Positions 2,817 through 44,328 of a stretch of DNA of 51,059 nt are shown here, one piece after another. Within the stretch, counting starts at the first letter, position 1, and every line of letters begins with the position of its first letter. Origin of the DNA: Pseudomonadota bacterium (GTDB lineage Bacteria; Bdellovibrionota_F; JAHFAK01; JBDREC01); contig JBDREC010000104.1 of NCBI GenBank assembly GCA_043820105.1, positions 1 to 51,059 of the forward strand, read 5' to 3'. A program made the translations under genes and the position numbers. Under the pieces are notes generated by a model, which was not told where the DNA came from, did not search any database, and saw only the letters and a program-made list of their open reading frames with translations.

Positions 2817-2955
2817 TTACACAATTAATAGGCATATTTTAAAAATAAAACCAGAACTGAGCATCATTTCACCAAAAAACATATGCAAAGAATTACGACC
2901 TTCACGTAAGCACTTAATATGAACAATAAATATTGGACTAAACATTTACAGGCCT

Positions 2956-2970: not shown

Positions 2971-3022
2971 ATTTATCTTTATTCGTACGAAAACCTTATG
3001 AACTAAAATTTTTGGGGGAACT

Positions 3023-3517
3023 ATGAAACGAAAAGGATTTACACTAGTAGAATTAATGATCACAGTAGCCATCATTGGCATTCTTGGTGCACTGGCAACA
3101 TCATCTCTAATGGGTCTAATTATTAAATCAAAAAAAGCTGAAGTAAATATTCTAGTTAGCGCAATATTTACAGCTGAAGCTCAATATAATTTAGAAAAAA
3201 ATTATATTCATCCAATATCAGAAGAATTTGACCCCATTCCTGTTTGGTTTGAAAAATTAAATGGTGATAAAATATCAGGTAGCGCAGATACCATTGCCAA
3301 TGATAAAGATTGCCAAATTCTAGGATTTGTCGTTAACGCTGATATATATTCAAACTTTCATGTAAGTTCAAAAATGTCTACTAATGGCATAGATTGGGCT
3401 ATTTATGTTTCTCAAGATCTGGATGATGATGATGAGATTGAAAATTACAAACAAGGAATGAATATTTCTGCTCTTGGATTAATAAAGGATGGTGAGATTC
3501 TAAATGAGGGGTATTAA
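3023..3517 (+). CDS. Type IV pilin (PilA-like)
   Basis: Prepilin cleavage motif KG|FTLVELM, hydrophobic helix, C-terminal QDLDDD motif as in myxobacterial/Geobacter-type pilins. Confidence 0.9.
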   Translation: MKRKGFTLVELMITVAIIGILGALATSSLMGLIIKSKKAEVNILVSAIFTAEAQYNLEKNYIHPISEEFDPIPVWFEKLNGDKISGSADTIANDKDCQILGFVVNADIYSNFHVSSKMSTNGIDWAIYVSQDLDDDDEIENYKQGMNISALGLIKDGEILNEGY

Positions 3518-4395: not shown

Positions 4396-4468
4396 TCTCC
4401 CGTTTCTATGACAATAATTAGTATTCTACTCCCCATTTCCTGAAAGAAACCCAAAAAAGCTCTTCCTG

Positions 4469-4484
4469 GCTGTACGCTGTACGC
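4469..4484. repeat. Heptamer (GCTGTAC)x2 just after the glnA stop
   Basis: Same unit, reverse complemented, as the GTACAGC tract at 46570-46597. Confidence 0.55.
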
Positions 4485-4487
4485 GTC

Positions 4488-6029: not shown

Positions 6030-6100
6030 CTGCTTTATCCTTTCCTTTATCTAGATTCTATTTTATGGATCATCAGAGTAAGCGGGTTTTTTTAGTTTCC

Positions 6101-6376
6101 TTAAACTATTTTGTCAAAAAACTTATCAGGTGCATTAATAATTTCCACACCAAAAAATTCTTCGTTTTGATATACTTTTTTGACTTTCACAATATACTCA
6201 ACATTTGAATTTGGAACCAAGATGGAGGTATGGAATTCATCTTTAATTGCCTGACCTCTAATCTTCATTCCACCTTCAGAAATGTCAACGCAGTCAAGTG
6301 TTCTTGCTGTATCTTCGGAATGATCAATTACATGATATTCCACATTATGCCTTTCAAATTGTCTTTTTTCTTTCAT
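6101..6376 (-). CDS. Stand-alone PilZ domain protein (c-di-GMP receptor)
   Basis: RQFER (RxxxR) and DISEGG (DxSxxG) motifs. Confidence 0.85.
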   Translation of the reverse strand: MKEKRQFERHNVEYHVIDHSEDTARTLDCVDISEGGMKIRGQAIKDEFHTSILVPNSNVEYIVKVKKVYQNEEFFGVEIINAPDKFFDKIV

Positions 6377-6522
6377 ATAAGACCTCTTTTGTCTCGTTGC
6401 GTTATGGTTTTATAAACTATTTTTTATGATTTGTCTACTATTTTATTATAAAATTCATTTGACTATAATAGTTGAATCTTTTTTACTTATTTTAACTATA
6501 TTTCAAAAAGAAAGAATTCTAA

Positions 6523-7707
6523 ATGAGTAAATTTATTTTAGCGCTGAGAATTGAAAATCCTTCTAAATATCATAATCTGGAAAGAGCTGAATATGATGCG
6601 CTTTTTCAAAAGCTTATAACAGCAGAGTTTGAAAAATCTGCATCAAGCCTGCTTGATAAATATGATATTTATGAAACTAACCATAATCCTCTCAAGGGCT
6701 TGCATTATGCTATTTTTACCTTACAAGATGATTCTTTGAAGCTTGATAAAACTGAATTTATTAATACTTTAATAGGCTCTTTTCAAGATGAAATAAAGTT
6801 ATCTTTGCACACTATTCTTGGAATTAGAATTGGTTCTGCGTTAAAATATGATCTTAATATCTTTTCTTTCATTGCTAATATTGAAGAAAAAGAAAAACTT
6901 GAAACTTATATTGAAAAATCTTTTATTAATTTTCCACAACGAGTTTCTCCCACATTACAAATAAACAGAAGAGATTTTCTTGAAATTTTGTCAAAAGGTA
7001 AGATTAACACCTTTTTCCAACCAATAATATCAATGGAAAGCATGAAAACAGTTGGCTTTGAAGCTCTTTCCAGGGGTCCAATGAATTCAAAGCTTAATAA
7101 CGCTCTTTCACTATTTAAAGCAGCAGCTAACCTTGGCTTAAATCATGAATTAGAATTAATATGTATAAAAAAGGCTTTAAAATATTTAGAAAAACTTCCA
7201 CAGCAATATTGGTTATCAGTTAATGTTGGACCTGGTGTTTTAGTTAGTGCAGATTTTAAAAAAATAGCCAAAGATCCAAAGTTCAAGAAAAATAGTAAAA
7301 GAATCATTTTTGAAATTACTGAGCACCTTCCAATTCTTAATATTCCAGACATAGCAGATACAATTGATGAACTAATAGCAAATGGTTATAGTTTTGCTTT
7401 AGATGATGCAGGTTGCGGCTTCATTGATTCTGAAATAATCGGAAAATTAAAACCAAAAATCATTAAAATTTGTACTAATGTTATTAACACTATTCTTGGA
7501 AAATCAGATTCAACAGAAATAATTGAAGACATTTTAAAAGATCTCAAAAAAATGGGTTGCCAGGTTTTGGTTGAAGGAATTGAAAATGAAGAAATCGCAA
7601 AACTCTTAGAAGGCAGTGGAATCGCCTTTGCCCAAGGTTTTTTCTTTAATAAGCCAAGACATGTTAGTGAATACGAATGGTTTGCTGGTGAAACAATAAT
7701 TGAGTAA
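6523..7707 (+). CDS. EAL domain c-di-GMP phosphodiesterase with unknown N-terminal region
   Basis: FQPI, EALSR, EITE, ALDDAGCG, VEGIE, QGFFF motifs. Confidence 0.9.
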   Translation: MSKFILALRIENPSKYHNLERAEYDALFQKLITAEFEKSASSLLDKYDIYETNHNPLKGLHYAIFTLQDDSLKLDKTEFINTLIGSFQDEIKLSLHTILGIRIGSALKYDLNIFSFIANIEEKEKLETYIEKSFINFPQRVSPTLQINRRDFLEILSKGKINTFFQPIISMESMKTVGFEALSRGPMNSKLNNALSLFKAAANLGLNHELELICIKKALKYLEKLPQQYWLSVNVGPGVLVSADFKKIAKDPKFKKNSKRIIFEITEHLPILNIPDIADTIDELIANGYSFALDDAGCGFIDSEIIGKLKPKIIKICTNVINTILGKSDSTEIIEDILKDLKKMGCQVLVEGIENEEIAKLLEGSGIAFAQGFFFNKPRHVSEYEWFAGETIIE

Positions 7708-15298: not shown

Positions 15299-15313
15299 GC
15301 AATTTCTGTGCCA
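15299..15313 (-). promoter_or_regulatory. Sigma54 -24/-12 promoter
   Basis: Minus strand TGGCAC-AGAAA-TTGC, perfect consensus, 33 bp before the lipoprotein start. Confidence 0.8.
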
Positions 15314-15459
15314 ATGAAATTTATCTTAAGTGTCTGTTTTTATTAGGCATCAAATTGAATATTAAAACAAAAGCGCTTATTTATTGCATATTTTCGCGTT
15401 TTTATATATTTTTGAGCAGATTTTACTCATTATACTAATAGGACCTTTTGGAGGAAATG

Positions 15460-18400
15460 ATGAAAAAACTTCTAGGCTTATACCTTATTTTCATGATGAT
15501 CTTTGCTTTTACACAACCATTTTTAGCCTGTCTAGGCTCAGATGACCAAGAGGATGCTGCTGAAAATGGAGAAACTGATGACATAGACACATCAATTCCT
15601 GATGGCTTTGCAAGAATTAACGGCTTTGCAATTCCAGCTGCAATTCCTGGAGCAATTCCTGGTTTATTAAAAAACGCTGAAGACACTGAAAGCTATGTGC
15701 AGGAGGCATCAGTTTATGTTATTGGCCAGGAAACATCAAAAGTTTACACAGATGAAGATGGATATTATTCATTATTAGTAGATACAACTACTAGTCCAGT
15801 AGTTACTTCAAACTATAAAGCCGCGACAGAAACACAATCTTTTGGCGTTGTAATAATAAGTCCTGATAGTAACTATGGCCGCAAATTTGAAGTTGAACTT
15901 TCAATAGGTGATAATTACGATGTTCCTGATATTGAGATTCCAACAACAGGAGTCATTGCTGGAACCGTGACTTTGCAAGGACAAAGTGATCACACTGGCA
16001 TTGATGTATACATCCCAGGAACTTCATTTTCAGCTAAAACAGATTCAGATGGCGACTTTACAATTAGTAATGTACCTGAAGGGCTTTATGATTTCCTCAG
16101 GGCAGAAAAAGACGGTTATAGATATGCTGTGCTTTCTGAAATTCAGGTTCAAAGAGAAGAAACTACCTCTACTGATTCTTTAGAATTGATTTTATCAACA
16201 GGAGCAAGTGGAGCAATTCAAATTAATAGTGGTGATAATATTTCAACATCTCTATCTTGTGAACTGACAATTGCAGCAACTGATGACGCTGTTTTAATGA
16301 TGGTCGCTGAAGATGTTAATTTTACGGGCGGCAGCTGGCAAGCAATTTCATCAACACTTGACCACACCTTTACAGATGAAGGAGAAAATACAGTTTATAT
16401 TAAGTTTGCTGATGCAAATGGACTTGAAAGCTCATATTTTAGTGATTCAATTACAATTATGACAAATCCTACAGTAACACTTTTAACACCAAGCCAAGGT
16501 CAAACAATTGCAGAAACTTTGCCATCATTTGATTGGAGTGACTCACCTCTTTCTAGTTCCACTTATACTTTTATCTTGGCTTCTGATTCAAACTTTTCAA
16601 ATGTTATTAAACAAGTAAGCAGCTTAACATCATCAACTTATACCCTAACAACAGTCCTTGATGATCTGGAACAATATTATTGGTCAGTAAAAATTGTTGA
16701 TGAAGATGCTAATAGTTATAGTTATGCAAGTGCTTATACTTTTTCAATAGACCTAAGTACTGTTACACTTTCAAGTCCAAGCTCTGCTTCAATTACAAAT
16801 GATACAACACCAAGCTTTTCATGGTCAGCAAATGCAAATGCAGCAAGCTATACATTTGTTTTATCAGAATCCTCTGATTTATCAAATCCTGTGGTTCAGG
16901 AAACAGGCATAACATCTACAAGTCACACCTTGACCTCAGCCCTTCCAGATACCACCTCAACAACTTATTATTGGGCTGTAACACCAGTTGATGAGAATGA
17001 GGTTGCAGGCACAAGATCTGATATTTGGAATTTTGAATTAGACAATACAGGCCCAACTGGTTCAGTCACAATTAATAGTGGTGATACAGAAACCTCTAAT
17101 ACTACAGTAAGTTTAACAATTTCAGCAACAGATGAAAACACTGTTAGTTATATGTATATTTCAACTGACGGAACTTTTACAGATGGAGCCTGGGAAGCCT
17201 ATTCAACTTCAGCTACCCTTACTTTTGACGAATTTGTAGCTGATGATAGTGCAACAATGACAGCTTATATAAAATTTAAAGACAATGCAGATAACCTTTC
17301 AGATTCATATAATGACAGCATTGATTTAGCCAGAACTCTTACTTCTGGATCAATTACTTTAGATGAAACCTGGGCTTTAGCTGACAGTCCATTTGTTATT
17401 ATTGGAAATGTGGGAGTAGCAAGTGGTGTTACATTAACTATTGAAGCAGGAGTAGAAGTATTATTTGATGGTGCTTATACAATATTAATATTAGGTGACA
17501 TCACAGCTGTAGGTACAGATGAAAATCCAATTACATTTACTTCAAATACAGCATCCACTTCATCTGGTGCAACAATGTTAAAATATGAACAAACTAATTT
17601 ATCTGATTCTTCTCTTAGTTATCTTGAGATGTCTTATGCAGCAAAAGCAATTCATGTTGGAGATGAAACTGAACTAGAACAAGATCCTACTGAGAATTCT
17701 GGCACCTTAACAATTGGCAATACTACCATTGATAATGCTGAAGTAAGGACTGGTGGTTATGATACAGCCGCTGCCATAGTTTTTAATACACCCACAATTT
17801 CCAACTCAACAATTATTGGTGAATCTGCAAGAAGTGAGCCAATAACTTTCAATAATGGAACAATTTCTGATTCAACTATTGTATCTGACTCATATAATAA
17901 TGGAATAACAATATCAGGTGTGATAGTTTCTGATTCTGAAATGAGAATTGGCTGCTGTGGAGGAAACATAACAATAAACAGCTCTTCAAATATTAGCAAT
18001 ACTCGAATTTATGAATATAGTGGCGCTCCAATTTCTGGTCCACTTGAAATAGATGCTTCTACACTAATTAATGTTAATATTGATTTACCCTATGCTCAAG
18101 TTAATTTTACTGATTCCATGGTTTATTATAATACTTTATATTTAACATATTCTTTTGGAACAAAAATGGGTAACGGAACAATTACTGAATCAGTTTTTGA
18201 TGGAACTTCAGGTATTACTGGCTTTGAAATTACTGGTTCTAATGGATATAGTACAAATGGAACCTGTAGTATTGATCTAGTTGATATAAATGATTTTGCA
18301 ACTGGAATTTATTTAAGCGGGGGATCCGGAGCATTTTCAATAACAGATTCAAATCTACATGACAATACAAGCTATGCTTTGAATAATGGTAAATCCATAG

Positions 18401-18549
18401 GTGTTACAGCTACTGGAAACTGGTGGGGATCAGATGATGAGGCAACAATTGAAAGTTATATTTATGATAATGATGATGATATAAGCCTTGGAGATGTTGA
18501 TTACTTAGGATATTTATCAGCTGAAAAAACCGGCACTGGCCCTCAATAA
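15460..18549 (+). CDS. Large acidic surface lipoprotein/adhesin (carboxypeptidase-regulatory-like, Ig/FN3-like repeats, C-terminal beta-helix)
   Basis: Lipobox FLAC; GIDVYIPGTSFSAKTDSDGDFTISNVPEG; duplicated INSGD...YIKFxD and PSFxWS...YYWxV modules; GVTLTIEAGVEV and ATGNWWG...IYD beta-helix signatures; GGAGG RBS. Confidence 0.85.
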   Translation: MKKLLGLYLIFMMIFAFTQPFLACLGSDDQEDAAENGETDDIDTSIPDGFARINGFAIPAAIPGAIPGLLKNAEDTESYVQEASVYVIGQETSKVYTDEDGYYSLLVDTTTSPVVTSNYKAATETQSFGVVIISPDSNYGRKFEVELSIGDNYDVPDIEIPTTGVIAGTVTLQGQSDHTGIDVYIPGTSFSAKTDSDGDFTISNVPEGLYDFLRAEKDGYRYAVLSEIQVQREETTSTDSLELILSTGASGAIQINSGDNISTSLSCELTIAATDDAVLMMVAEDVNFTGGSWQAISSTLDHTFTDEGENTVYIKFADANGLESSYFSDSITIMTNPTVTLLTPSQGQTIAETLPSFDWSDSPLSSSTYTFILASDSNFSNVIKQVSSLTSSTYTLTTVLDDLEQYYWSVKIVDEDANSYSYASAYTFSIDLSTVTLSSPSSASITNDTTPSFSWSANANAASYTFVLSESSDLSNPVVQETGITSTSHTLTSALPDTTSTTYYWAVTPVDENEVAGTRSDIWNFELDNTGPTGSVTINSGDTETSNTTVSLTISATDENTVSYMYISTDGTFTDGAWEAYSTSATLTFDEFVADDSATMTAYIKFKDNADNLSDSYNDSIDLARTLTSGSITLDETWALADSPFVIIGNVGVASGVTLTIEAGVEVLFDGAYTILILGDITAVGTDENPITFTSNTASTSSGATMLKYEQTNLSDSSLSYLEMSYAAKAIHVGDETELEQDPTENSGTLTIGNTTIDNAEVRTGGYDTAAAIVFNTPTISNSTIIGESARSEPITFNNGTISDSTIVSDSYNNGITISGVIVSDSEMRIGCCGGNITINSSSNISNTRIYEYSGAPISGPLEIDASTLINVNIDLPYAQVNFTDSMVYYNTLYLTYSFGTKMGNGTITESVFDGTSGITGFEITGSNGYSTNGTCSIDLVDINDFATGIYLSGGSGAFSITDSNLHDNTSYALNNGKSIGVTATGNWWGSDDEATIESYIYDNDDDISLGDVDYLGYLSAEKTGTGPQ

Positions 18550-19916: not shown

Positions 19917-19931
19917 TGGCACATAAAATGC
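19917..19931 (+). promoter_or_regulatory. Sigma54 -24/-12 promoter
   Basis: TGGCAC-ATAAA-ATGC (one mismatch, GG-N10-GC intact), 37 bp before ATG 19969. Confidence 0.7.
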
Positions 19932-19968: not shown

Positions 19969-20616
19969 ATGAAAGTATTAACAATTACCCTAATCTTATC
20001 TTTTCTTTTTTCATTTACATTATTTGCATATGAACTTGATAGTATTAATTTAGATGATTCATTTGAATTTGAGCCAGCTTATGGTCAAGGAATCTGCAAT
20101 AACCATCAAATATACATGCCTAAATATGTTTCTTGCTGGTTTGGAACCTCAGGTGATGATGTATTCTTTGTCACTGACGACAATAAAGTCAAAATCAACA
20201 ATGAAATCGTTGGTGACTATGTATTAACATACGATTACCCAGCTGGAAGCATAGTAAGAATGCATATTTTCCTCGGGTTTTCAGGAAACGACCAAATCGC
20301 AGGGGGCCCAGGCTTTGACTTCATTGTTGGTGGACCAGGAGATGATTACTTATTTGGTGGTGACTATAAAGACAAACTTGAAGGCCGCCAAGGAAATGAT
20401 ATTTTGCAAGCAGGGGCTGGTGATGATGTATTAGAAGGTGGCTCAGGTGATGACATTTTGTTAGGGGAAGCAGGCAATGATATCTTGAGAGGTCAAACTG
20501 GTGTTGATTATTTAGACGGAGGACTTGATGCTGATATTTTAGATGGTGGAAAGCAAGAATGTAACACTATTATTACCGATGATAACGACTTATATAAAGT
20601 AAATGGTTGCGATTAA
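19969..20616 (+). CDS. Secreted protein with RTX/hemolysin-type Ca-binding nonapeptide repeats
   Basis: Signal peptide (LFA|Y); about ten tandem GGxGxDxLx repeats. Confidence 0.88.
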   Translation: MKVLTITLILSFLFSFTLFAYELDSINLDDSFEFEPAYGQGICNNHQIYMPKYVSCWFGTSGDDVFFVTDDNKVKINNEIVGDYVLTYDYPAGSIVRMHIFLGFSGNDQIAGGPGFDFIVGGPGDDYLFGGDYKDKLEGRQGNDILQAGAGDDVLEGGSGDDILLGEAGNDILRGQTGVDYLDGGLDADILDGGKQECNTIITDDNDLYKVNGCD

Positions 20617-23030: not shown

Positions 23031-23045
23031 TGGCACTAAACTTGC
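23031..23045 (+). promoter_or_regulatory. Sigma54 -24/-12 promoter of the four-gene secreted operon
   Basis: TGGCAC-TAAAC-TTGC, perfect consensus. Confidence 0.8.
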
Positions 23046-23123
23046 TTAAAAAAAAGAAGAACAATGCCGAACATAGACGTATTATAAGCATATTATTAAT
23101 TAATGTTTTTAGGGGGCCTAAAA

Positions 23124-24023
23124 ATGAAACGCACAGTACAAATCTTATCGTTAATCGTACTTTTCACTATTATATCAACTACACTGATTTTTGCTCAAAG
23201 ACCAGTAGACGTAAGAAAATCAATGACAAAAAGAGAAGCTTTAAGAGAATTTAAAAAGCTTAAATCTGGTGATCAAGCTATGATGTCAGAAGCTGATTGG
23301 GCAAAGTCAAACAGAGATATGCTTCTTGGTCTTACTTCTGTCAGAAGTTTTGATAAAGGAACAAGACCTTCTGAAACAGCAAGTGAAGCTGGCGAAATAA
23401 AATTCGCTAGACAATATTTAATAGATAATGTTGCAAAACTCATGGAAAATATTAATAAAGCAGAAATAAGGTTGTCTGAATTAGATGAAATTGAACTAGA
23501 GGAAAAAGATAAAATTGAGGTTACAGAAAAAAGTATTTATATTAGAGCAAAAAGATTTTTTGAAAATTGCAGTGACGATAATGTGTTGAAGTTTATATCT
23601 GTACTTTCAGCGGTTGAAGATTTTCCAAGAGAAGTTCGAAATAGTGCATTAAAAACACTTGCTATGTATGCTGAATATGCTGAGAAAACAGATGATACTG
23701 GCATTCCAGTAGAAAAGCTTATTTTTGATTTAAATGATATGCTCAAAACTGAAGAAGGCCGTGATCCAGTTGAAATAGTTGAAGTGGAAAGACATTTAAG
23801 AGAACTAAGAAAAGTTTTTGCAATAGCTGTTGCTGAATTTGCAAAAAGCACGAGCACTAATGTTGAAGCTATGAAAACATTTCAGTTTGCTTTTGGAAAA
23901 TATCATGTTCTAAAAGAAGCTAAAAAGCTTGGACTTACTTATCAAGCTGCAACCTTAGCTGAAAAAGTAAAGGAAATTGTTAGAGAAAAACTTGAAAGAC
24001 TAGAAAGATGTCTATTAATTTAA
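23124..24023 (+). CDS. Secreted helical hypothetical protein
   Basis: ATG 23124 after AGGGGG; signal peptide (IFA|Q); E/K/A/L-rich helical composition. Confidence 0.75.
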   Translation: MKRTVQILSLIVLFTIISTTLIFAQRPVDVRKSMTKREALREFKKLKSGDQAMMSEADWAKSNRDMLLGLTSVRSFDKGTRPSETASEAGEIKFARQYLIDNVAKLMENINKAEIRLSELDEIELEEKDKIEVTEKSIYIRAKRFFENCSDDNVLKFISVLSAVEDFPREVRNSALKTLAMYAEYAEKTDDTGIPVEKLIFDLNDMLKTEEGRDPVEIVEVERHLRELRKVFAIAVAEFAKSTSTNVEAMKTFQFAFGKYHVLKEAKKLGLTYQAATLAEKVKEIVREKLERLERCLLI

Positions 24024-24088
24024 AATAATTATTTTCACCTTATAATATAACTTTGGGTAGAGTTATATTTAGAGAAGGGGGAGCGCAA

Positions 24089-27016
24089 TTGAAACATTCA
24101 AAACAAAAATATAAGCTTTCTATACTTACATCCTTATTCATTATATTTTTCATAAGCTATTCTGCATTTGCTGAAAACTCATCTGATGGCACAGCAACTT
24201 CAAACTCAGATTCCGAAATAAACGGCGATGAACAAATTATTCGTTTTTATCCTATAAATGGTCAAACTCAAATGTCTGTTAAAACGATTGATGAAGAAGC
24301 AACAATGATGAATGTTGTTTCTAATCCAACACCATATCACACAATTGGCTTAACAGAAGAAGAAATTTTAAGCTTAAGCGAAAATGCTCTTGATAAAAAA
24401 ATAGAAGAAAAAATTGGAGAAGAAGAAAACGCCTTGAGAAACTTATTTGCAATAATTACCGCGAGCAAGACAAAAGATGAAAAGGCATTGAAAAAAATGG
24501 CTGAAGATGAAAGAATACCTGAACAATATAGAATCTTACTAAAAGATATTTTAAGCTCAAAAGGTGAAGACAGGGCTCTTCAATTGCACGAACTTGAAAA
24601 TCATTATAAAGTTAGAAAATATAATTTCACAGGAACTAAAAGCCTACTCCAAGATCCAGAAAGAAAAACAAATGAAGTAGCGTGGTATTCAAAAGGAATG
24701 GAAAAAGGTTATTTTCTCCAGGCTACGCCAGCTCATAATACTGGTGCACATATGGTCCAATTTTATTCAGCTGTCGTTTTATCAAGTCTTATTTCTGATC
24801 CAGCTCATTTTGACGAATCAATTACATCACTTTTAATACCAAGAACACATGCACATTTTTTAACCTTCACATATTTTGCAAATCTAGGCAGCACAGGCAC
24901 AATGTTTATGAGAAACATTATGGGCACAGCACTGGGTCTAAAGTCTTCTCCTGGAATTCTAGCACAATCAACAGCTTCATATTTAGGCTTAGTACTAGGT
25001 TCAACAATGGCAGACGTGATCTGGGAACTAGCAGCTGAACCCGAACACTGGAAAATACTCTGGAGAAGTGTATTTAATAAGGATAAAGTTAATAAAGCAG
25101 AAAACCGTTATCTACGAAATAGCATCTTGGAACATTTTGGATATAGAGCATCTTCTGGGTCTCTTAGCTTTCTTGCTGCAGTTATCTCTTCAAAAATGAT
25201 TGAAAAAGGTGCTCTATACGGAGCATTAGGTTTATTAAATGGTACTTTAAAGGGAAACATAAAAACCACACTTATTTCACCAGATGATGCATATGGCAAA
25301 GCACATAATATGAGTAGAAAAAAAATTAAGTCTAAGTTGCCTAAAAAAATGGCCCAAGTACAGAGAGTCGAAGCGCCTGTTAGTATTTTAGAAAAAAAGC
25401 TTGTTCAAGCTGGTGTGGGTGGCAAATCACAATATGTTAGATTTGGAAAATGGGGAGTAAGAAGATTAGGTGGTGAAGCCACTTTGCTTTTTGACATAAT
25501 TTCTACAACCTTCATGTTAACACTGGCCCATAAATACGAACAATGGGATCAAGGCAGACAACAGGAAAATTATGAAGAAAGATATCAAGAAGCCATTACA
25601 GACTTCAACTCAACCAGAAAAGCATATGAAATTGGTGGAAAAAGATACATTGATCTATTAATAGCCTCAACAGAAGTAGCAGATAAATTTCAGCATTTAT
25701 TAAGTAAATATCAGGAAAAACACCTTATATTACAATCAGTTTATGAACAAGAAATGTACCAAATAAGTACTAAGTATAATTCTGCTATAAATTGGATTAA
25801 ATGGATTGGGCTAAATGGTCTTAATGTAAATGATCAAGAGTTTCTTGTTGGAGAACAAACAGGATGGCATGAACCCTTTGGAACAAAGAAATTTTATGCA
25901 CAAACAATGGATTGGTTAAGAATCTTTTTCTGGGGATCATGGTATCCTGAAACAAAAAAGCATAATCCATTATCTGGTTTTAGACCTGTTTACGATATTG
26001 ATAAAGTTTTATCAACTGAGCTAAAAGATAAATTTGAAAACTATAAAGGTGATATTGGAGCAGCTCAGCAAGCAATTAATTTAATAAAACAAGTCCACGC
26101 TGGAAGAACATATCAAGAAGCCACAAGAATATATATTCAAAAACTTGAAGATCAAAGGGATCTTAAAATTCAATCTGCTTTTAAAAAGCATATGAAAAAA
26201 TCAAAAAAGACTTTAGAAGAACTTTATATTAAAGATTCAAAAATAAGTGCAACTATAAATAAGAATCTTATATACAACTACAGAGACTATATTAAATCAC
26301 TTAAAAAAGTGAAATTCCCAAGCTCATTAAAAGAAATCAAAGTAAGTCAGTCCACTCACTGTCTTGATATTCTTTTGGGTGAAGCTCCTTTTGCTCAGGC
26401 AGACAGAATATATGACATTAATTATTGCAGGGGAATTATAGAAGATGATTTTGATAAATTACTAATTTATCTTGGTATAAATAAAGAGGAGGCAATGAGT
26501 ACTAATCCAGAGAGTCAGCCTCATAACTCATCATTAACAAACTTGGCCTTATTACATGCAAACAGAATATTTAGAACACTGATTGAAGAAGAACAAATAG
26601 ATGGAGCATTAAAATTTACCGTGGGTTATGACATAACTTATGAAGACCTTGTAATGCATGAAGTATCTGGTTTTGCTGACGTTAGCAGGGCATGTTCACA
26701 GAGATCATGTAATATGATGTTCAACCCCGCTGAAGTAATGGCTGAAAGAAGAAAAGAATTAGAAGCACAAAATGGAATTGAAAGACCAATAGATGAAAAG
26801 ATAGAATTAAATGAACAAGAAAAAAGGTATATGAATTCATTAATTGTCACAGCTGATAGAATGAAAAGAGCTTTTACCGATAGAGCAACACTAGAAAATA
26901 TAAAAAAGAATTGGTCAATTTCTAGTGGGGAAAACCATGATGATGGTGGAATAAAAAAAATACCAAGAATCCCGGAAGAAAGATCTGGAAGATTAAGCAC
27001 AGGACCAGGAGTTTAA
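24089..27016 (+). CDS. Large secreted hypothetical protein with central Gly/Ala-rich hydrophobic segments
   Basis: TTG 24089 after GGGGAG gives a clean signal peptide (AFA|E); ~975 aa; no family recognised. Confidence 0.8.
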   Translation: MKHSKQKYKLSILTSLFIIFFISYSAFAENSSDGTATSNSDSEINGDEQIIRFYPINGQTQMSVKTIDEEATMMNVVSNPTPYHTIGLTEEEILSLSENALDKKIEEKIGEEENALRNLFAIITASKTKDEKALKKMAEDERIPEQYRILLKDILSSKGEDRALQLHELENHYKVRKYNFTGTKSLLQDPERKTNEVAWYSKGMEKGYFLQATPAHNTGAHMVQFYSAVVLSSLISDPAHFDESITSLLIPRTHAHFLTFTYFANLGSTGTMFMRNIMGTALGLKSSPGILAQSTASYLGLVLGSTMADVIWELAAEPEHWKILWRSVFNKDKVNKAENRYLRNSILEHFGYRASSGSLSFLAAVISSKMIEKGALYGALGLLNGTLKGNIKTTLISPDDAYGKAHNMSRKKIKSKLPKKMAQVQRVEAPVSILEKKLVQAGVGGKSQYVRFGKWGVRRLGGEATLLFDIISTTFMLTLAHKYEQWDQGRQQENYEERYQEAITDFNSTRKAYEIGGKRYIDLLIASTEVADKFQHLLSKYQEKHLILQSVYEQEMYQISTKYNSAINWIKWIGLNGLNVNDQEFLVGEQTGWHEPFGTKKFYAQTMDWLRIFFWGSWYPETKKHNPLSGFRPVYDIDKVLSTELKDKFENYKGDIGAAQQAINLIKQVHAGRTYQEATRIYIQKLEDQRDLKIQSAFKKHMKKSKKTLEELYIKDSKISATINKNLIYNYRDYIKSLKKVKFPSSLKEIKVSQSTHCLDILLGEAPFAQADRIYDINYCRGIIEDDFDKLLIYLGINKEEAMSTNPESQPHNSSLTNLALLHANRIFRTLIEEEQIDGALKFTVGYDITYEDLVMHEVSGFADVSRACSQRSCNMMFNPAEVMAERRKELEAQNGIERPIDEKIELNEQEKRYMNSLIVTADRMKRAFTDRATLENIKKNWSISSGENHDDGGIKKIPRIPEERSGRLSTGPGV

Positions 27017-27033
27017 GGAGAAAGGAATAAATT

Positions 27034-30033
27034 ATGATATTTAATGAGGACAGTTTGAAAAAACAAAAAAAGTTTATAATTCAAATATTCTTAATATTAA
27101 TGATTATTGTTTTATTATTCTCAAGTATGAGTGCGTATGACTTATATCCAGCTGATTATGATCCGGATGGGAATTCTTCTGCATCGTTAATTGCAATAAT
27201 TTTTGATAAGCTAAGTGATCATAATAAGAAAAAAGCCGAGGACCTAAGCCAACAGCATGACATTAATCCAGAACAATTCTTTGGCTTATACACTGGAAGC
27301 AAATCACAATGGCAAACAATATCAAGTGAAATCCTTGATTTAACTAAAACATATATGTTTCCAACTATTGAAAACAGTGAAAATGTGAATCTTGGTTTTG
27401 ATTTTGAAAATCAAGTTATGAGTTCAAATGACCCAAATGATAAAGGTAAAATTTTATCATATTATCTTCTTTATCACATTTTAAACAGAGTCCCTGTTAA
27501 TTTTGATAAGCAAGCAATTATTGATCAGCAATTAATAGGTTATGATTCAATGGCTCTAAGATTTAATGAGGAAGAAACTGAAGAAGATATTGATTATGAT
27601 GCCAGTGATCCATCTGATAATTATAAAAGTTCTTATGATGATGATAATTGCGATGATGGTTCTTTTTGTGAAAAAGCTGAAGAAAATAGAGAGGATGACT
27701 TTTATGAAGATAGTGATGCATGTATCCCTGATGAGGGTTGCGATGACTATACATCAGAAGAAGAAAGATATGATGAAATAAGTGAAAAGTTAACACATCT
27801 CTATAATTCAAACTTAAGAGCGTGGCACAAGGGCAGATCTGTTCTATGGAATCACTTTAATCCTGAATGGCTTCTATTTAATATTGATATAAGTGAAGCA
27901 AATGCTGAAGAAAGGCAGTATTTTGTTCAAGTAGCGGATGTTTTCAATAAAATCATTAACAAAGAATTTCCGGAAAATGACAAAGAAATGGCCAAACTAC
28001 ATGAAAATATGATGGATGGCGCTAATCTTAAGGGTCTTGCGAAATTAAGACTTAATGGAAATAAATTTCAACTTGTGATGAATAGAAAAGAGTTTTCTGA
28101 TATGAAAATTTATCCAGAAAACAAAGGTTGGAATATTGAATCTAGAGACCCCTTTCACATTGAGGGTATGCAAAAATTCGCTAAAGAACTAAAAAATGTA
28201 ATCGTTTTTGGATCAGGTTTTGCTTATGGTAGCGCGGTTGTACCTTGGTTAGATAATAATTTATTAGGCAAAAGTTTATTATTAAAACTCAGAAAAGTTC
28301 CATATTTAAAGTCCTTTCTTTTTCATCCTGTTAAAAAACCTTTTAATGTTGCTGATCCAAAAAAATCAGTAAGTGTGCTTAAAAAAATGGGGAAAGGATT
28401 ATTAAGGGTCCCAGCTAGAGGTGTCAGTGACATTGCTACTTTTGCATCAAGGTTGCCGACAATTGCAGGTGCATTGTTTTATGGATATACGGCTTTTGAC
28501 TATTATAGCACAATGAATGAAATTTCAAATGGCATGGTAGTTAATGATAACGGACTACCAGTATTTTTTAATACCTTAAATGAGCAAAACGCGATGGTTG
28601 GCGATATAACCTTTGAAGCAATGCGAGCCTTATCTTTTCAAGTGCTCATGAGAGGTCAGGTAATGAATCCTGTATCATTGGGAATATTAACAACATACAT
28701 GACAGCTGAGTTTATTCAAGGCTTATCAAAAATATCTGGATCAAAAGTTGAATTTAAAGATGCAATAGCTGGACATTATTCTACTTATCAAAGATTATGG
28801 GATAAAAAAGTCCATCCTATGTTACATCCTGAAAAAGGCGAAATAAATAGGCAAAAAAAGTTAAATGAAGCAAACAACAATTATTACTTAACTTACTATG
28901 AATTTGAAAAAGATCCGTTAGTTTGTAATGGTTTCGTTGATACTGATATACTAATGGGTCATCAAAATGAGTTTGCTATTAGAATGAACAATATAAACAC
29001 AGGTCTTGGTACAATCAAAATAATAAGTTCACTTGTTGATGAATTTGAAAATCGAAACTTAACTGAAAATGAGCAAATGAAAATCAAGCAAGGTTTAAAA
29101 GAACTTTATTGGATTTTATATGAATCGGATAATGAACTTATGCCCACAACTATACCGACAAAATTAGAGATAGAGGATTTTAAGTGGAATGACTTAGAAT
29201 ATTTGGGCGACTTAAATTTAGCCAAACAAAATGTTATTCTCTACTTAAAATCATATCTCCCGGAACTTCGATCTGGTTTGTATAATAAGCTTGAAGCTTC
29301 TTATGGAATGTATTGGAAATATATGAAAATGTCATCACTTTGTTGGATGAATTACATTTTTAATGGTTTAAGGCACACTGGAAATCCAAATTCAGTAGTA
29401 AATTATTTTTTCTTTAATCCAAGAGATGTTAGCTCAAGAGGATTAGCTGCATTAAAACAAGTTACTGTAAGTTCAATTAAAAAATTCTGGAATAAGGTTT
29501 TATCATTTGTTGGTATTGATTGGCGCTTTGAAATCAAAAGCTATCGTGACGCTTATTATAAAAAAATTGAATTAATGATGCATGAAAGTAAAAATGAATT
29601 AATTTCAGCTTTTTGGCAAACCTTTTTTCTAGATAGTCAATATTTTGAATTTAAAGAAAGATACCAATCTGCAAATATAAGAAGATCTGTAAATGATGAT
29701 GAACTATATTATGACACTGTGTTAAATGAAGATGGCAGTTTAAAGAATCCACTTTTTGTATGGCATGTAAGAGAAGCAACTTCTGAGTCTAATTGGGAAT
29801 TCATTCCTTTAGTCAAATACTATCACCTATTAAAAGATAAAATCTTGAATTATAAAGAAGTTGATATAGCACAAATTGAGGCCTTAAAAACTCGAATTGG
29901 TCAAGAAAATAAAAAAGATCAAATTGATCAGAACCGAAATGAAGATGAAGAGCTGAAAATGGAATCAGTAAGGATTTTAGAATGTTTAGTGTCTAGTGAT
30001 AATCCAGATAAATGCAATAGGAGGGATAACTAG
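27034..30033 (+). CDS. Large secreted hypothetical protein with acidic Cys insert and hydrophobic segments
   Basis: 999 aa, signal peptide (MSA|Y), AAGGA RBS; no family recognised. Confidence 0.8.
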   Translation: MIFNEDSLKKQKKFIIQIFLILMIIVLLFSSMSAYDLYPADYDPDGNSSASLIAIIFDKLSDHNKKKAEDLSQQHDINPEQFFGLYTGSKSQWQTISSEILDLTKTYMFPTIENSENVNLGFDFENQVMSSNDPNDKGKILSYYLLYHILNRVPVNFDKQAIIDQQLIGYDSMALRFNEEETEEDIDYDASDPSDNYKSSYDDDNCDDGSFCEKAEENREDDFYEDSDACIPDEGCDDYTSEEERYDEISEKLTHLYNSNLRAWHKGRSVLWNHFNPEWLLFNIDISEANAEERQYFVQVADVFNKIINKEFPENDKEMAKLHENMMDGANLKGLAKLRLNGNKFQLVMNRKEFSDMKIYPENKGWNIESRDPFHIEGMQKFAKELKNVIVFGSGFAYGSAVVPWLDNNLLGKSLLLKLRKVPYLKSFLFHPVKKPFNVADPKKSVSVLKKMGKGLLRVPARGVSDIATFASRLPTIAGALFYGYTAFDYYSTMNEISNGMVVNDNGLPVFFNTLNEQNAMVGDITFEAMRALSFQVLMRGQVMNPVSLGILTTYMTAEFIQGLSKISGSKVEFKDAIAGHYSTYQRLWDKKVHPMLHPEKGEINRQKKLNEANNNYYLTYYEFEKDPLVCNGFVDTDILMGHQNEFAIRMNNINTGLGTIKIISSLVDEFENRNLTENEQMKIKQGLKELYWILYESDNELMPTTIPTKLEIEDFKWNDLEYLGDLNLAKQNVILYLKSYLPELRSGLYNKLEASYGMYWKYMKMSSLCWMNYIFNGLRHTGNPNSVVNYFFFNPRDVSSRGLAALKQVTVSSIKKFWNKVLSFVGIDWRFEIKSYRDAYYKKIELMMHESKNELISAFWQTFFLDSQYFEFKERYQSANIRRSVNDDELYYDTVLNEDGSLKNPLFVWHVREATSESNWEFIPLVKYYHLLKDKILNYKEVDIAQIEALKTRIGQENKKDQIDQNRNEDEELKMESVRILECLVSSDNPDKCNRRDN

Positions 30034-30035
30034 TC

Positions 30036-31118
30036 ATGAACAGAAATAATTTAAAAGCATTTATTTTTTTATTTGCCTTAGCATATTCTTCCCTAATTTA
30101 TTCTCAAAGCGGTGATGATGCATTGTGGGCTTTATTAGGTGAAGTTAACCAAGTATTAGAGCAAGAGCCAGCATTACGAACAGCTGTTATAGAGGCAAAA
30201 GATGAATTTCAAAGAACCAGTATTGATTTGGAATCTGAAGTTGAAGAAGAATTTGATGTTCTATTATGGAATAACCTATTTAATGAACTTGCAACCACAG
30301 GTGAAACTTTCACTTTTGAAGATATAAATACATTATATGAAGAAGAAAATTCACCAGAAACAGTCCAAAGTCCTTCAGACATTTACGAGTTCGCAACAAG
30401 CACTGTTGATAATACAAGCACAGATGAAGCAGAACCAGAAGGCATATCCTATAAAGAAGCCAGGAATATGATTTTCAAAGAATATCTAGATAAAGTGACA
30501 AATAATGATTTTAGAGTAAAATCATTTTACTGGAGATTTGTTTTAAGGCTTGCTGATTTTTTTAATACCTCTTGGAATTGGACCGCGAGAAATATTTATA
30601 AAGAAAATATCGGGCGAGTTTATTCAAGAGACAGGCAATTATTAAAAGTAGAAGCAGAAACATTATATTTAACTAAATATCTTATGAAAAAACATGAAAA
30701 CATGTTGTTCCAGGATGGAAGCATATTATTAGAAGCTGGCTTAGCTGACTTCGCGGAAGTATGGGAAATGCTATTACGAGACGCTGGCTGGGATCCGAGT
30801 GAACTTACAGAGATGAACTTAAATAATTTTGAATCAGTCTATAGTGATGCCATATCAAATCCAAATATTGATATTGAATCTGAAGAACAATCAAATCCAG
30901 ATATAATATGTGAAGAAATAAAAAGTATATTTTTAGAAAAGATAAATAATGGTGAATATGATACTGCATTATATATTGATCTAGCTTTAGAAGAAGATAT
31001 AAGATATTTTATTGATGAAATTCCAGAAGAATATCTTTTATATGAAACTCGTAACATCTTGCTTAGTGACAAAGTAGAACCATTAATTCAAGAAATCATG
31101 TATGAGCTTGGGTATTAA
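30036..31118 (+). CDS. Secreted acidic hypothetical protein
   Basis: Starts 2 bp after the previous stop; signal peptide (IYS|Q); strongly E/D-rich. Confidence 0.75.
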   Translation: MNRNNLKAFIFLFALAYSSLIYSQSGDDALWALLGEVNQVLEQEPALRTAVIEAKDEFQRTSIDLESEVEEEFDVLLWNNLFNELATTGETFTFEDINTLYEEENSPETVQSPSDIYEFATSTVDNTSTDEAEPEGISYKEARNMIFKEYLDKVTNNDFRVKSFYWRFVLRLADFFNTSWNWTARNIYKENIGRVYSRDRQLLKVEAETLYLTKYLMKKHENMLFQDGSILLEAGLADFAEVWEMLLRDAGWDPSELTEMNLNNFESVYSDAISNPNIDIESEEQSNPDIICEEIKSIFLEKINNGEYDTALYIDLALEEDIRYFIDEIPEEYLLYETRNILLSDKVEPLIQEIMYELGY

Positions 31119-31166: not shown

Positions 31167-31192
31167 GAATTGGGACGAAATTATCCCAATTC
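31167..31192. promoter_or_regulatory. Palindrome: operon terminator-like hairpin or activator site
   Basis: GAATTGGGA-CGAAATTA-TCCCAATTC; 48 bp after the operon, ~80-100 bp upstream of the next sigma54 box; no strong U tract. Confidence 0.5.
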
Positions 31193-31268: not shown

Positions 31269-31283
31269 AGGCACACATTTTGC
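31269..31283 (+). promoter_or_regulatory. Sigma54 -24/-12 promoter
   Basis: AGGCAC-ACATT-TTGC, 95 bp before ATG 31379. Confidence 0.65.
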
Positions 31284-31378: not shown

Positions 31379-32224
31379 ATGAAACAAACAATTCAAATTA
31401 TTTTGGCAATTCTAATTTTAACAATTTCCTTTTTTAGCACAAGCTATTCAAATGAAAGAATCAGTGATCAAAAGAAGGCAAAGCTTAAAGAGCTCTTTCC
31501 AAATGTCATAACATTTAATGAAGCAATTGATGAAATTTATTTTTTAGAAAGAAAAACTGAAAATGATCAAGAAATAGAATGCTTAAAAACTAATAGCTCT
31601 GATTTGCTTGATTACTATATAACATTTGGCTTAAATTATGTTTACATGGAAGAAGTTGAACCATGGCCCTCTGAAAGAAGTGAAGCAATAAAATCTACAC
31701 AAGATGAGCTTATTGATTTGTCGAAGGCAATCATTTCAAATTCTAGAAGCAATGAAGAAAAGCGTATTATATCTAATATAAATGAAATTTTAGAATTTAC
31801 AGAAAAGGCACATGATCTTACTGTAGCAGAAATTAGAGCTTCAATTGTATATGCTAATTCAATTGAAAACCAAAAGCTAAGATTAAAAATTAGTAAAATT
31901 GTATATTTATATTGGACGATTGTAGCCAAAAAAAATGAACAATTTATTGACCTTTTAGCTGTTGATATAATCAGAAATATTGAATCTAATTTTAATTTTA
32001 ATAAAAAAAGACAAAGCTCAATGGAAGATAAATTATATTCGATAATTAAAGAAAAAAATAATTTTTTAGAAGACTATATTACGATTTTCAATTTAATCTT
32101 ATCTATAGAAAGTTCAGAACAATTTTTAGATATGAGTTTATATGAGTTATTTGAAAGAGCATATAGAGAACAAAAAGGGAATGTAATTTATAAAATAGAA
32201 GAAGAGTTTATTTTGGAAAAATAA
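31379..32224 (+). CDS. Secreted helical hypothetical protein
   Basis: Signal peptide (SYS|N), GGGAG RBS, I/E/K-rich. Confidence 0.7.
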   Translation: MKQTIQIILAILILTISFFSTSYSNERISDQKKAKLKELFPNVITFNEAIDEIYFLERKTENDQEIECLKTNSSDLLDYYITFGLNYVYMEEVEPWPSERSEAIKSTQDELIDLSKAIISNSRSNEEKRIISNINEILEFTEKAHDLTVAEIRASIVYANSIENQKLRLKISKIVYLYWTIVAKKNEQFIDLLAVDIIRNIESNFNFNKKRQSSMEDKLYSIIKEKNNFLEDYITIFNLILSIESSEQFLDMSLYELFERAYREQKGNVIYKIEEEFILEK

Positions 32225-41190: not shown

Positions 41191-42711
41191 TTATCCTTTT
41201 AAAAGACTTGTAAAACGTTTCTTTATAAAGTCATTATCTAATGTGGCTAAAAACCATCCTGCTCTTGGACCTTTTTCCTGCCCAAGCATTGAAATATATA
41301 TTGCCCTAAAAGCTTCACTTGGTTCAAGTTCAAATTTTTCTTTTCCCTCGTAGATCAGTTTGTGGAAATCATCTCCTGAATAATTCTCTTGTGCATGCTC
41401 GGCAATATATTCTAAAAACTCTTTATTTTTTTCACTCAAAGTTAAAGCTTCACTTGGAACTTCTTGCTTTATTTCAAAGCGCATGCTTTCTGGAGCGAAT
41501 CTATCAAGCCACTTCCTGGCCCAAAATGCTCTATCAGCCACTGCAGCTTTACTTACAATTTCATAGCCAGTTCTCTTTAATATATGAATGATTTGATCAA
41601 CATCATCAGCAGCAATTTGAACTAGGTTTACCATGTGTTTAAAAGGAACATTGGCTGCCTCGATCCCTCTAATTGATGATAGCTCATAAGCACGCTGATT
41701 CCTGTTAGCATTTTCTTCATCATATTCATTTATAATATTCAAAATGCCAAGACCAGGATCAAAAGTAATTGCTTTTTTAGGTTGAACTTTGAAAACCATA
41801 TATCTTAAAACTTCAGGAGGAAGTACTTCTAAGGTTTTATCAATGCTTAGAACATTTCCTTTACTTGAAGACATATCACCCTGTCCTTTTAAAGAAATCC
41901 ATTCATAAATTATTGGAACAGGAGCCTGGCAATCAAAAACTTCTTTAGCAATTTCAACCCCAGTATCATATGAACCACCGCGAGAGGCATGATCTTTTCC
42001 AAAGGGTTCAACTAATACTTTTAAAACTGACCACCTAGCTGGCCAATCAATTCTCCATGTTAACTTTCCATTCCCTGTTACATCTACTGTCTTTGCTGAA
42101 CCACATGAGCATTCATAATCAATAGAATTATTTTCTCGTGAAAATCCAACAAGTTTTGTTGTGGTCATTTTCTTGCAATCAGCACAAATTGGATTAAATG
42201 GAGACCAATCTTGAGAAATTTCTTTTCCTGTTTTCTTATTTAAAATGCTTGCAATTTCCTCTCTTTTTTCAAGAGCAGAAAAAATTGCATTATTCATTTC
42301 ACCTGATTCATAAAGTTGGCTAGATCTTTTAACTTCCACATCAATATCAAGTTTTTTTAAAGACTCAACAAAGGGAATCAAGAAGTGCTCTGAATAGCTG
42401 TCATGTTGCCCACAAGGGCAAGGAATCCTGGAAATGGGCATTCCTACATATTGTTCATAAATCTCAGCATCTAAAAAAGGGTAAACCTTTCTAAGTGGAT
42501 CAAAATTGTCTGCAATATAATGAAAGGATATTTTATCAGTTTTTTTCTTTAATGACCTAAAAACCGCATCACCAGTCAAAACTTCCCTCATATTACCAAT
42601 ATGGATTTCACCAGATGGTGTGATTCCAGTACTAATTACTATATCTTTATTCCTTGCTATAGCCTGATCAGCTACCAAATCAGCCCAAAAATTCGAATTA
42701 TCCTGTAACAT
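41191..42711 (-). CDS. lysS: Lysine--tRNA ligase, class I
   Basis: FWAD, TPSGEIHIGNMRE (HIGH), GKLTWRIDWPARW, EPFGKDH, MSSSKGN (KMSKS), GPRAG. Confidence 0.96.
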   Translation of the reverse strand: MLQDNSNFWADLVADQAIARNKDIVISTGITPSGEIHIGNMREVLTGDAVFRSLKKKTDKISFHYIADNFDPLRKVYPFLDAEIYEQYVGMPISRIPCPCGQHDSYSEHFLIPFVESLKKLDIDVEVKRSSQLYESGEMNNAIFSALEKREEIASILNKKTGKEISQDWSPFNPICADCKKMTTTKLVGFSRENNSIDYECSCGSAKTVDVTGNGKLTWRIDWPARWSVLKVLVEPFGKDHASRGGSYDTGVEIAKEVFDCQAPVPIIYEWISLKGQGDMSSSKGNVLSIDKTLEVLPPEVLRYMVFKVQPKKAITFDPGLGILNIINEYDEENANRNQRAYELSSIRGIEAANVPFKHMVNLVQIAADDVDQIIHILKRTGYEIVSKAAVADRAFWARKWLDRFAPESMRFEIKQEVPSEALTLSEKNKEFLEYIAEHAQENYSGDDFHKLIYEGKEKFELEPSEAFRAIYISMLGQEKGPRAGWFLATLDNDFIKKRFTSLLKG

Positions 42712-43165: not shown

Positions 43166-43180
43166 TGGCATTTAAATTGC
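43166..43180 (+). promoter_or_regulatory. Sigma54 -24/-12 promoter of the candidate sRNA
   Basis: TGGCAT-TTAAA-TTGC; predicted +1 at ~43192-43193, the first base of hairpin 1. Confidence 0.8.
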
Positions 43181-43192: not shown

Positions 43193-43393
43193 ATGAATTG
43201 CTTGGGGAAGCGATATTATGAGGGTGAGCGCAATGCTTGCTCGCCCTTATATTTTTCCATGGCAATTCATTTGCGAGACTTATTTTGATGTTGATCTAGT
43301 CAGTCCTTATAGGACCGGCTATTTTAAACATAATATCTCCTTCTCTTTAATAACCTAAGTTTAAGCAGGTTCGGGTGAACCTGCTTTTTTTTT
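43193..43393 (+). ncRNA. Candidate sigma54-dependent small RNA with three stem-loops
   Basis: Hairpin 1 43193-43270, hairpin 2 43275-43339, terminator 43363-43393; several G-U pairs valid only on +; locally raised GC; no RBS-led ORF. Confidence 0.75.
43363..43393 (+). terminator. Rho-independent terminator
   Basis: AAGCAGGTTC-GGGT-GAACCTGCTT running into a T tract. Confidence 0.9.
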
Positions 43394-43485: not shown

Positions 43486-44328
43486 ATGTCATATAAAAAT
43501 GCTGACAAGCCAAAAGATATCTTTATGAATATTTTAAAAATGGCTAAATTAGAAACTCTTAGACTTTCTCCAGGCATTAAAGAATTCTTAGATGCTATTC
43601 CTATTCTAACAAAAAATATTTCAAAATTTGAAAAAATCGATCGCATTTTAATAAACCTTGCTGATTTAAAAAATCAGATGGAAAACATAAAAAGGGATCT
43701 TAGAAACCTTACTGAAAAAATTTCAAATAAAAAGGAAGAACCTAATAACCAAAGACAGCAAAACCAAAATCAAAACCAACATAACCATAAACAACATTTT
43801 TATAAAAAATATGAGCACAAAAAAAGTTTTAATAATAATGATAATTTCAGAAAAGATGATTATAAAAAAGTTGAACCTATTAAAGAATATGATAAAAAAC
43901 CTGAGAGTGCTGGCTTTATTATAGATGAGCTTGGAAACAAAGTTCCAACAAAACCACAAGCTGAAAAAAAGCCTTTTAACAATCCAAATCCTAAACCATT
44001 TCAAGCAAGAAGATGTAAGGTTTGGGGTTGTGAAAAACCAGCATTTGACATGGGATATTGTGCTGAACATTATGAAAAGTTTTATTTACCAAAAACTCAA
44101 ACACCACAACAACCTGTTGGTGCTAAAAAAGTAGAAGCGCCAAATGAAGTTGAAAACATAAAAACAGAGACAAAGATAACTGATCCAAAGACTGCTGCTA
44201 AAAAAACTGTAACTAAAAAGACGACCGCTAAAAAAACAGCAACAAAAAAAGTTGTAGCAAAAACGACAAGTGCTAAAAAACCTGCTGCTAAAAAAGCAAC
44301 AACAAAGAAAATAACAAAAAAGAAATAA
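43486..44328 (+). CDS. Coiled-coil/zinc-motif protein with histone H1-like tail (myxobacterial vegetative-protein-like)
   Basis: N-terminal coiled coil, CKVWGC-x9-CAEHY (C-x4-C-x9-C-x2-H), terminal AKK/TKK repeats. Confidence 0.7.
   Translation: MSYKNADKPKDIFMNILKMAKLETLRLSPGIKEFLDAIPILTKNISKFEKIDRILINLADLKNQMENIKRDLRNLTEKISNKKEEPNNQRQQNQNQNQHNHKQHFYKKYEHKKSFNNNDNFRKDDYKKVEPIKEYDKKPESAGFIIDELGNKVPTKPQAEKKPFNNPNPKPFQARRCKVWGCEKPAFDMGYCAEHYEKFYLPKTQTPQQPVGAKKVEAPNEVENIKTETKITDPKTAAKKTVTKKTTAKKTATKKVVAKTTSAKKPAAKKATTKKITKKK

Follow-up and report, generated by a model that had tools for sequence, protein, structure and literature searches.

The stretch of DNA analyzed here (the window; 51,059 bases, ~31% G+C) belongs to contig C104 of a 3.8-Mb, 113-contig bacterial genome that is 93% complete, and at 23031-31118 it carries a sigma-54 type promoter box followed by an operon of four genes, A, B, C and D. 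The core of the operon is a tightly spaced gene pair, B-C, encoding two exported proteins of ~1,000 amino acids that are predicted to be all-alpha, one basic and the other acidic. This pair occurs twice in the genome, each time behind an exact sigma-54 box and each time followed by a gene for a small acidic exported protein. We favor, with a probability of roughly 0.4, the reading that B and C form a lineage-restricted, membrane-inserting complex of the cell envelope, which would probably reside in the inner membrane of the producer itself. An earlier proposal for the same operon (the original prediction) was a co-secreted complex that attacks the membranes of prey or host. The B-C module is a clean, duplicated and rare two-protein pair from a barely sampled phylum, for which the collection searched holds only four species genomes, and exported protein families of unknown kind are common in uncultured lineages. 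If B and C are a membrane-inserting heteromer, their architecture would be one without a described relative, and the pair would be an envelope machine or else a pore former of a novel kind.

The four genes are co-oriented on the plus strand and follow the box with gaps of 65, 17 and 2 nt between them, an arrangement that was described originally and was reproduced with starts backed by ribosome-binding sites (RBSs). Signal peptides were judged by eye and with a hydropathy script (Kyte-Doolittle values, KD, in 19-residue windows), and the claim that all four proteins carry Sec-type signal peptides held on this basis: the N-terminal peaks of A, B, C and the neighboring gene product E reach KD 2.0-2.8, while the hydrophobic core of D (AFIFLFALAY) is short and falls below the 19-residue threshold. 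Gene B (24089-27016, plus strand) encodes 975 amino acids (987 when read from TTG 24053) with a signal peptide (…SAFA/ENS) and an isoelectric point (pI) of 8.6; its likeliest start is TTG 24089, which comes after GGGGGAG and agrees with the 975-residue database record P0001. Gene C (27034-30033, plus strand) starts at ATG 27034 after the RBS GGAGAAAGGA, which lies directly after the B stop codon, and encodes 999 amino acids with a signal peptide or anchor (…SSMSA/YD) and a pI of 5.1.

Only B and C have paralogues in the genome, namely B′ (1686-4577, with an ATG start) and C′ (4592-7380, also starting with ATG), which are adjacent on contig C55. The phmmer E values are 4.5e-31 for B-B′ and 3.1e-15 for C-C′; pair identity is 24-29%, with BLASTP giving 23.6% over 796 columns for B-B′ and 23.7% over 582 columns for C-C′. 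The two loci share the gene order, the tight spacing (17 nt and 14 nt), an RBS in each gap and the pairing of a basic protein (pI 8.6 for B, 7.9 for B′) with an acidic one (5.1 for C, 5.0 for C′). An exact sigma-54 box lies before B′ at C55 1483-1497, and C′ is followed by a gene for a 142-residue acidic exported protein (pI 4.4) and then by a one-mismatch box at 7939 before the next exported gene. Both pair promoters have CTTGTTT ahead of the box and ACTTGCTTA spanning its 3′ end, and they share 16 of 29 non-core positions, compared with a median of 10 over the 73 exact boxes of the genome, so that the C55 promoter is, tied with one site, the best of the other 72. The original idea of a multi-gene unit is thereby upheld for B-C, with B′-C′ as its second copy, and falls for A and D, which are absent from the C55 copy; what the two loci have in common is therefore B-C together with a small acidic protein, and not a fixed set of four genes. 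Likewise, the conserved co-occurrence expected of the genes was found for the B-C order twice within this genome, and the searches of other genomes described below yielded no further locus.

Relatives of the pair are few. An exhaustive profile search with B and B′ against 1.84 billion representatives returned only two more proteins, P0003 (995 amino acids, E 1.7e-11) and P0004 (965 amino acids, E 6.4e-6), both with a signal peptide and a B-like length. B had no match in 40 other genomes, the B-family alignment none in the three other genomes of the phylum, and the C family none in those three or in 400 genomes; these genome searches are samples and not proof of absence. C as a query found no relative locus in genome contigs, nor did P0003 in genome and metagenome contigs or P0004 in metagenome contigs. 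Word-based protein searches with B, the B family and the C family returned only the window's own protein, and such searches are weak here, as they missed P0002-P0004. Nothing over the cut-off was found for A to E in Pfam, NCBIfam, PHROGs or PADLOC, in line with the earlier statement that the proteins are orphans lacking a recognizable enzyme motif. The PDB sequence search with the B family gave nothing at E up to 10, and that with the C-family alignment, A and D gave only chance rows (E 0.06-0.88). Within the reach of these tools, B and C are rated as new families that appear to stand apart from every described kind; because this rating follows from failure to match, with shallow alignments and poor models, a known fold may be hidden in them. 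The families, with four (B) and two (C) sequences, are too small for covariation analysis.

Within the B family, 43 columns are invariant among the four proteins, and 15 of them fall inside B 237-321. The signature of this region consists of AH-x-QFY, an invariant His (PRTHA in B and B′) and A308-x3-G312-L313-x2-G316-S317-x3-D321, in which A308-G312-G316 forms a small-xxx-small (glycine-zipper-like) motif. Conservation peaks at B 211-240, 301-330, 481-510, 571-630 (including W581, W584 and W605-H606) and 721-750, and no part of the family is better conserved than the hydrophobic helices. These Gly/Ala/Ser-rich helices occupy the center of B, at about residues 229-495 (numbered from 24053), and those of C lie at 385-565. 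Four to five central helices in each of B and C reach KD values of only 0.9-1.3 over 19 residues; the aligned helices of the paralogues are more hydrophobic, with KD 1.85 and 1.53 for B′ and 2.29 and 1.89 for C′. Basic loops between the hydrophobic helices, at B 396-470 and C 408-462, carry a net charge of +13 each. The original prediction had stressed a layout common to B and C, which is correct as a description (central helices of KD 0.9-1.3 and one +13 loop in each) and does not extend to common ancestry, since homology between B and C was rejected with a profile-profile probability of 0.1% (E 0.66). All seven peptides quoted at that time are present in the translations. The accompanying claim of Trp-rich amphipathic segments was borne out in part: the Trp content of B, C and D is 1.3-1.9%, compared with a background of 0.81%, and the hydrophobic moments of the quoted segments stand at the 96th percentile within C and the 99th within D, whereas that of the B segment stands at the 50th percentile within B. 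C also contains an acidic, Cys-containing insert at residues ~180-250 (window 27570-27790) with two C-x5/6-C pairs (CDDGSFC and CIPDEGC), which is absent in C′.

The same order, the tight spacing, the duplication as a pair and the complementary charge suggest that B and C work together. We propose that they are co-produced, pass the inner membrane by the Sec route and act as a hetero-oligomer, in which the conserved Gly/Ala/Ser-rich helix cluster, with its small-xxx-small motif and invariant His, Ser and Asp, would sit in the membrane, and the large helical N- and C-terminal domains would lie in the periplasm. The most plausible site of insertion would be the producer's own inner membrane, through four helices that leave the basic loop on the cytoplasmic side; A and D may then serve as locus-specific periplasmic accessory proteins, and the complex may act as a channel, a scaffold or a sensor. 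Several lines of evidence point to this site. In a Sec substrate, a segment as hydrophobic as the B′ and C′ helices would be expected to serve as a stop-transfer anchor, so that the paralogue helices should be hydrophobic enough to halt transfer during export. The invariant His, Ser and Asp lie inside these helices, a four-helix topology would place the +13 loops in the cytoplasm, in keeping with the positive-inside rule, and the operon is part of an extensive sigma-54 regulon of the envelope. Other observations weigh against the proposal. At KD 0.9-1.3, the helices of B and C themselves are below the usual transmembrane strength, and thus B and C might remain soluble once exported. Nor are the strongly basic loops conserved: the corresponding charge is +4 for B′, +1 for C′ and from 0 to +6 for P0003 and P0004. 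Binding between B and C is suggested solely by the conserved gene order, the topology and membrane location assigned to the pair are predictions from the protein sequences, and the four secretins encoded in the genome make export beyond the outer membrane possible.

These same features bear on the idea, close to the original prediction, that B and C, helped by A and D, cross both membranes and, as an alpha-helical pore former or translocator of several components, insert into the membrane of prey or host. Marginally hydrophobic central helices are what would be expected of helices that are soluble before insertion, all four proteins have signal-peptide-like N-termini, and the four secretins would offer a way out of the cell; however, paralogue helices of up to KD 2.29 should be caught in the inner membrane of the producer during Sec export. 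Motifs such as the conserved A308-G312-G316 have been described in channel-forming toxins and effectors, but invariant His, Ser and Asp within hydrophobic helices would fit a functional membrane core better. The enrichment of Trp, the strong amphipathicity of two of the three quoted segments, the presence of an RTX-repeat gene 3 kb upstream and the duplication and divergence of the pair, as often seen with toxin loci, would also suit a pore former. Against these stand the lack of any toxin family in Pfam or NCBIfam at E up to 0.1 and of any PDB sequence match, the size of B and C, the absence of A and D from the conserved unit, the lack of a recognized candidate immunity gene and the generic nature of the sigma-54 box in this genome. 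Homology, fold and context lend this idea no positive support, and a pore former aimed at foreign membranes seems unlikely. A bolder version, in which the pair represents a new class of two-component alpha-helical membrane inserters that are exported by Sec and a secretin under sigma-54 control and form glycine-zipper hetero-oligomeric pores in foreign membranes, with the C55 locus as a second, diverged weapon, is more speculative still.

Among known families of membrane-inserting proteins, the ClyA-family toxins (ClyA, Hbl/Nhe, YaxAB/XaxAB and AhlABC) are alike in that neighboring genes encode several helical proteins and that hydrophobic helices lie within otherwise polar helical proteins. 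They differ in that no sequence match to them was found for A to E in Pfam and NCBIfam at E up to 0.1 or for the B family in the PDB, in that the hydrophobic part of B and C is a cluster of four to five helices over ~270 residues instead of the single head hairpin that ClyA-type toxins carry on an elongated helical-bundle tail, and in that B and C carry Sec signal peptides in a diderm. ClyA-type components and translocators comprise ~300-600 amino acids, and B and C, at ~1,000, are about three times the size of ClyA components. The colicin pore-forming domain, a C-terminal domain of ten helices that include a buried hydrophobic hairpin, was rejected, as it gave no Pfam match and the hydrophobic helices of B (229-495) and C (385-565) are central and not C-terminal. 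Type III translocator operons, which encode a chaperone, a major (IpaB/YopB-type) and a minor (IpaC/YopD-type) translocator and a tip protein, resemble the present operon in the gene order of a small helical protein, two membrane-inserting helical proteins and a small acidic one, and in having central hydrophobic helices followed by coiled-coil regions. B and C were nevertheless not assigned to this family, because they have signal-peptide-like N-termini and no sequence similarity to it; to our knowledge, type III translocators have no Sec signal peptide, and they are about half the size of B and C. IpaB 74-242 did appear among the generic helical matches of the B model (Z 7.3, root-mean-square deviation (rmsd) 6.7, 148 aligned, rank 11), within the noise band. 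Altogether, the links to ClyA/Hbl/YaxAB toxins, colicins and translocators that had been put forward found no counterpart in sequence or fold, with models that are too poor to exclude such a fold.

A separate likeness concerns the J-domain (DnaJ, PF00226). P0003 has, at residues ~40-290, three N-terminal repeats that resemble J-domain helices I-II without the HPD motif, with a Pfam E of 1.3e-4 and 22.4 bits, and B and B′ align at this repeat stretch (…TPYHTIGL… and …DPFLFLGL…). Membership in the J-domain family was rejected, as the P0003 score is below the cut-off of 27.8 bits, HPD is lacking and PF00226, searched against this genome, misses both B and B′. We know of no Hsp70 outside the cytoplasm, where such a J-domain would lie.

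Structure prediction neither supports nor refutes any of these readings, at the quality of the models obtained. The AlphaFold2 model of B, built from the four-sequence alignment, is all-helical with long helical hairpins, at a mean predicted local distance difference test score (pLDDT) of 40.1 and a predicted template-modeling score of 0.26; pLDDT is above 50 only at residues 93-204, 552-627 and 688-719. The AlphaFold2 model of D, folded alone, has a pLDDT of 34.9 and is unusable. In the ESM Atlas, the models have pLDDT values of 0.40 (B) and 0.36 (C), all TM-scores are below 0.35, and the best feature scores, 0.76 for B and 0.83 for C, are leads only. With the poor B model, Foldseek gave no match in the PDB at E up to 0.001, and the best hit of the VIA wide search, a phage T7 protein, had a Z of 8.5 (rmsd 4.9, 127 aligned); every row of that search is a helical hairpin over B 520-750, below the bar of ~13 for helical models. 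The modeling and fold search originally suggested as a check thus yielded only generic helical matches, among which no toxin fold is listed, and the B model is too poor to exclude a toxin fold. Complex prediction with B 205-640 and C 370-700 gave a score of 0.00 and a mark of 0.32 with an uncertain partner fold, which is evidence neither for nor against binding.

Regarding the promoter, the box TGGCACTAAACTTGC at 23031-23045 (plus strand) matches TGGCAC-N5-TTGC exactly, with the -24 GG and -12 GC at the canonical fixed spacing, and lies 78 nt before ATG 23124 of gene A, so its earlier description as a perfect sigma-54 box was accurate. Its value as a special mark of this operon was lost when the rest of the genome was considered. 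Ten sites in the window match the motif with at most one mismatch, compared with a mean of 1.92 in shuffled sequences, none of 100 of which reached ten, and the genome has 73 exact boxes, whereas 30 permuted control motifs average 2.1 (maximum 6). An open reading frame (ORF) of at least 60 amino acids lies within 200 nt downstream of 61 of the 73. Where the downstream ORF has at least 200 amino acids, 41 of 46 boxes precede a signal-peptide- or lipoprotein-like N-terminus, versus ~37% of 1,945 background frames scored by the same crude rule. The genome has one rpoN match (PF04552, E 1.7e-62) and 33 matches to the sigma-54 activator domain PF00158, none of which is on C104 or C55. Sigma-54 therefore appears, from the genes found next to its boxes, to be the usual promoter type for exported and lipoprotein-like proteins in this genome, and a box so common marks nothing special at this operon. 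Known sigma-54 promoters of envelope and surface genes are alike in the box, its spacing, the exported products and the presence of rpoN with many enhancer-binding proteins; the scale seen here (73 boxes, with nearly all larger ORFs exported-looking) is unusually large, and differences from known promoters are that no cognate activator gene lies on either contig and that no shared upstream activator site was found, a k-mer search of the 73 upstream regions having returned only AT-rich k-mers. The wider and perhaps more useful point may be sigma-54 as a standard promoter for exported proteins, served by some 30 activators that include giants of ~1,950 amino acids. Sigma-54 has been proposed to control the bacterial exterior (PMC3162934), and the exported proteins downstream of the boxes fit this view.

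A regulon dominated by exported and lipoprotein-like proteins, consistent with the cell-exterior view (PMC3162934), would also suit B and C as soluble helical structural proteins of the periplasm or surface, such as a scaffold, coat, adhesin or matrix, in which the central helices would form a buried protein core and stay out of any membrane. The prediction of B as all-alpha with long helical hairpins, the restriction of fold matches to coiled-coil or helical-hairpin proteins and the KD values of the B and C helices, which are below the usual transmembrane threshold, all agree with such a role. It is harder to reconcile with the transmembrane-strength helices that B′ and C′ have at the matching positions and with a hydrophobic cluster that is conserved better than any other part of the family and bears a small-xxx-small motif; moreover, repeats or low-complexity regions typical of coats or adhesins are missing, except for the acidic insert in C. 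We consider this explanation doubtful and retain the inner-membrane complex as the preferred reading.

As for other sigma-54 elements in the genome, seven frames of 1,949-1,993 amino acids, 33-43% identical over their full length and with an AAA+ domain near the C-terminus, form a family of giant activators; they lie at C10 95031-100928, C27 6560-12442, C49 19584-25562, C64 45325-51252, C88 7394-13240, C90 52121-58072 and C90 167683-173580, and two shorter related frames are found on C54 and C108. Further exact boxes in the window are at 1617-1631 and 15299-15313, both on the minus strand. One-mismatch boxes lie at 2956-2970 before a type IV pilin-like gene (3023-3517), at 19917-19931 before the RTX-repeat protein gene, and at 43166-43180 and 43260-43274 before a gene at 43486-44328 with a weak, sub-cut-off Pfam match to histone-H1-like HC2.

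The remaining members of the operon are specific to this locus. Gene A (23124-24023, plus strand) encodes a Lys/Glu-rich protein of 299 amino acids (306 from ATG 23103), with a signal-peptide-like N-terminus (…TLIFA/QRP) and no hydrophobic segment beyond it; the likeliest start is ATG 23124, after AGGGGG. Gene D (30036-31118, plus strand) starts at ATG 30036 behind the RBS AGGAGGGA, located inside the end of C, and encodes a very acidic protein (360 amino acids, pI 4.1, 1.9% Trp) with a signal-peptide-like N-terminus. Neither gene has a paralogue in its own genome. In 150 other genomes, A had one 76-residue match at chance level (E 4.5e-4) and D had none, and no similarity was found between A and c55_357 or between D and c55_142 or c55_1032 (E at least 0.2). 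A palindromic 10-bp hairpin at 31167-31192, without a clear T-run on the plus strand, follows gene D and is likely the end of the operon. Beyond it, a sigma-54-like box with one mismatch (AGGCACACATTTTGC, 31269-31283, plus strand) precedes gene E (31379-32224, plus strand), which encodes an exported orphan protein of 281 amino acids and has no paralogue in the genome; gene E has its own box and is taken as a neighbor, not as an established member of the operon.

The G+C content of the operon region is the same as that of its surroundings, and the genes around it are ordinary chromosomal genes; a mobile-element check by tblastn, with B against plasmids and phages and C against phages, gave no match. 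A divergent type IV pilin gene adjoins the operon, and no link beyond adjacency was found. Among the sequencing runs listed for the window there is no RNA run; three groundwater DNA runs contain short, low-depth pieces identical to the window, which show neither variation nor expression. The RTX-repeat gene upstream (19969-20616, plus strand) encodes 215 amino acids with four stretches of RTX calcium-binding nonapeptides (Pfam E 2.7e-28). Exported proteins of ~1,032 amino acids are encoded in both locus regions, at C55 8002-11100 and window 15448-18549, and are not mutually similar; the former gene is preceded by a one-mismatch sigma-54-like box, and the product of the latter has a CarboxypepD_reg domain, the exact box in its gap (15299-15313) being on the opposite strand. 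The lysyl-tRNA synthetase encoded at 41191-42711 (minus strand) belongs to class I (Pfam tRNA-synt_1f, E 9e-123), the rarer type among bacteria.

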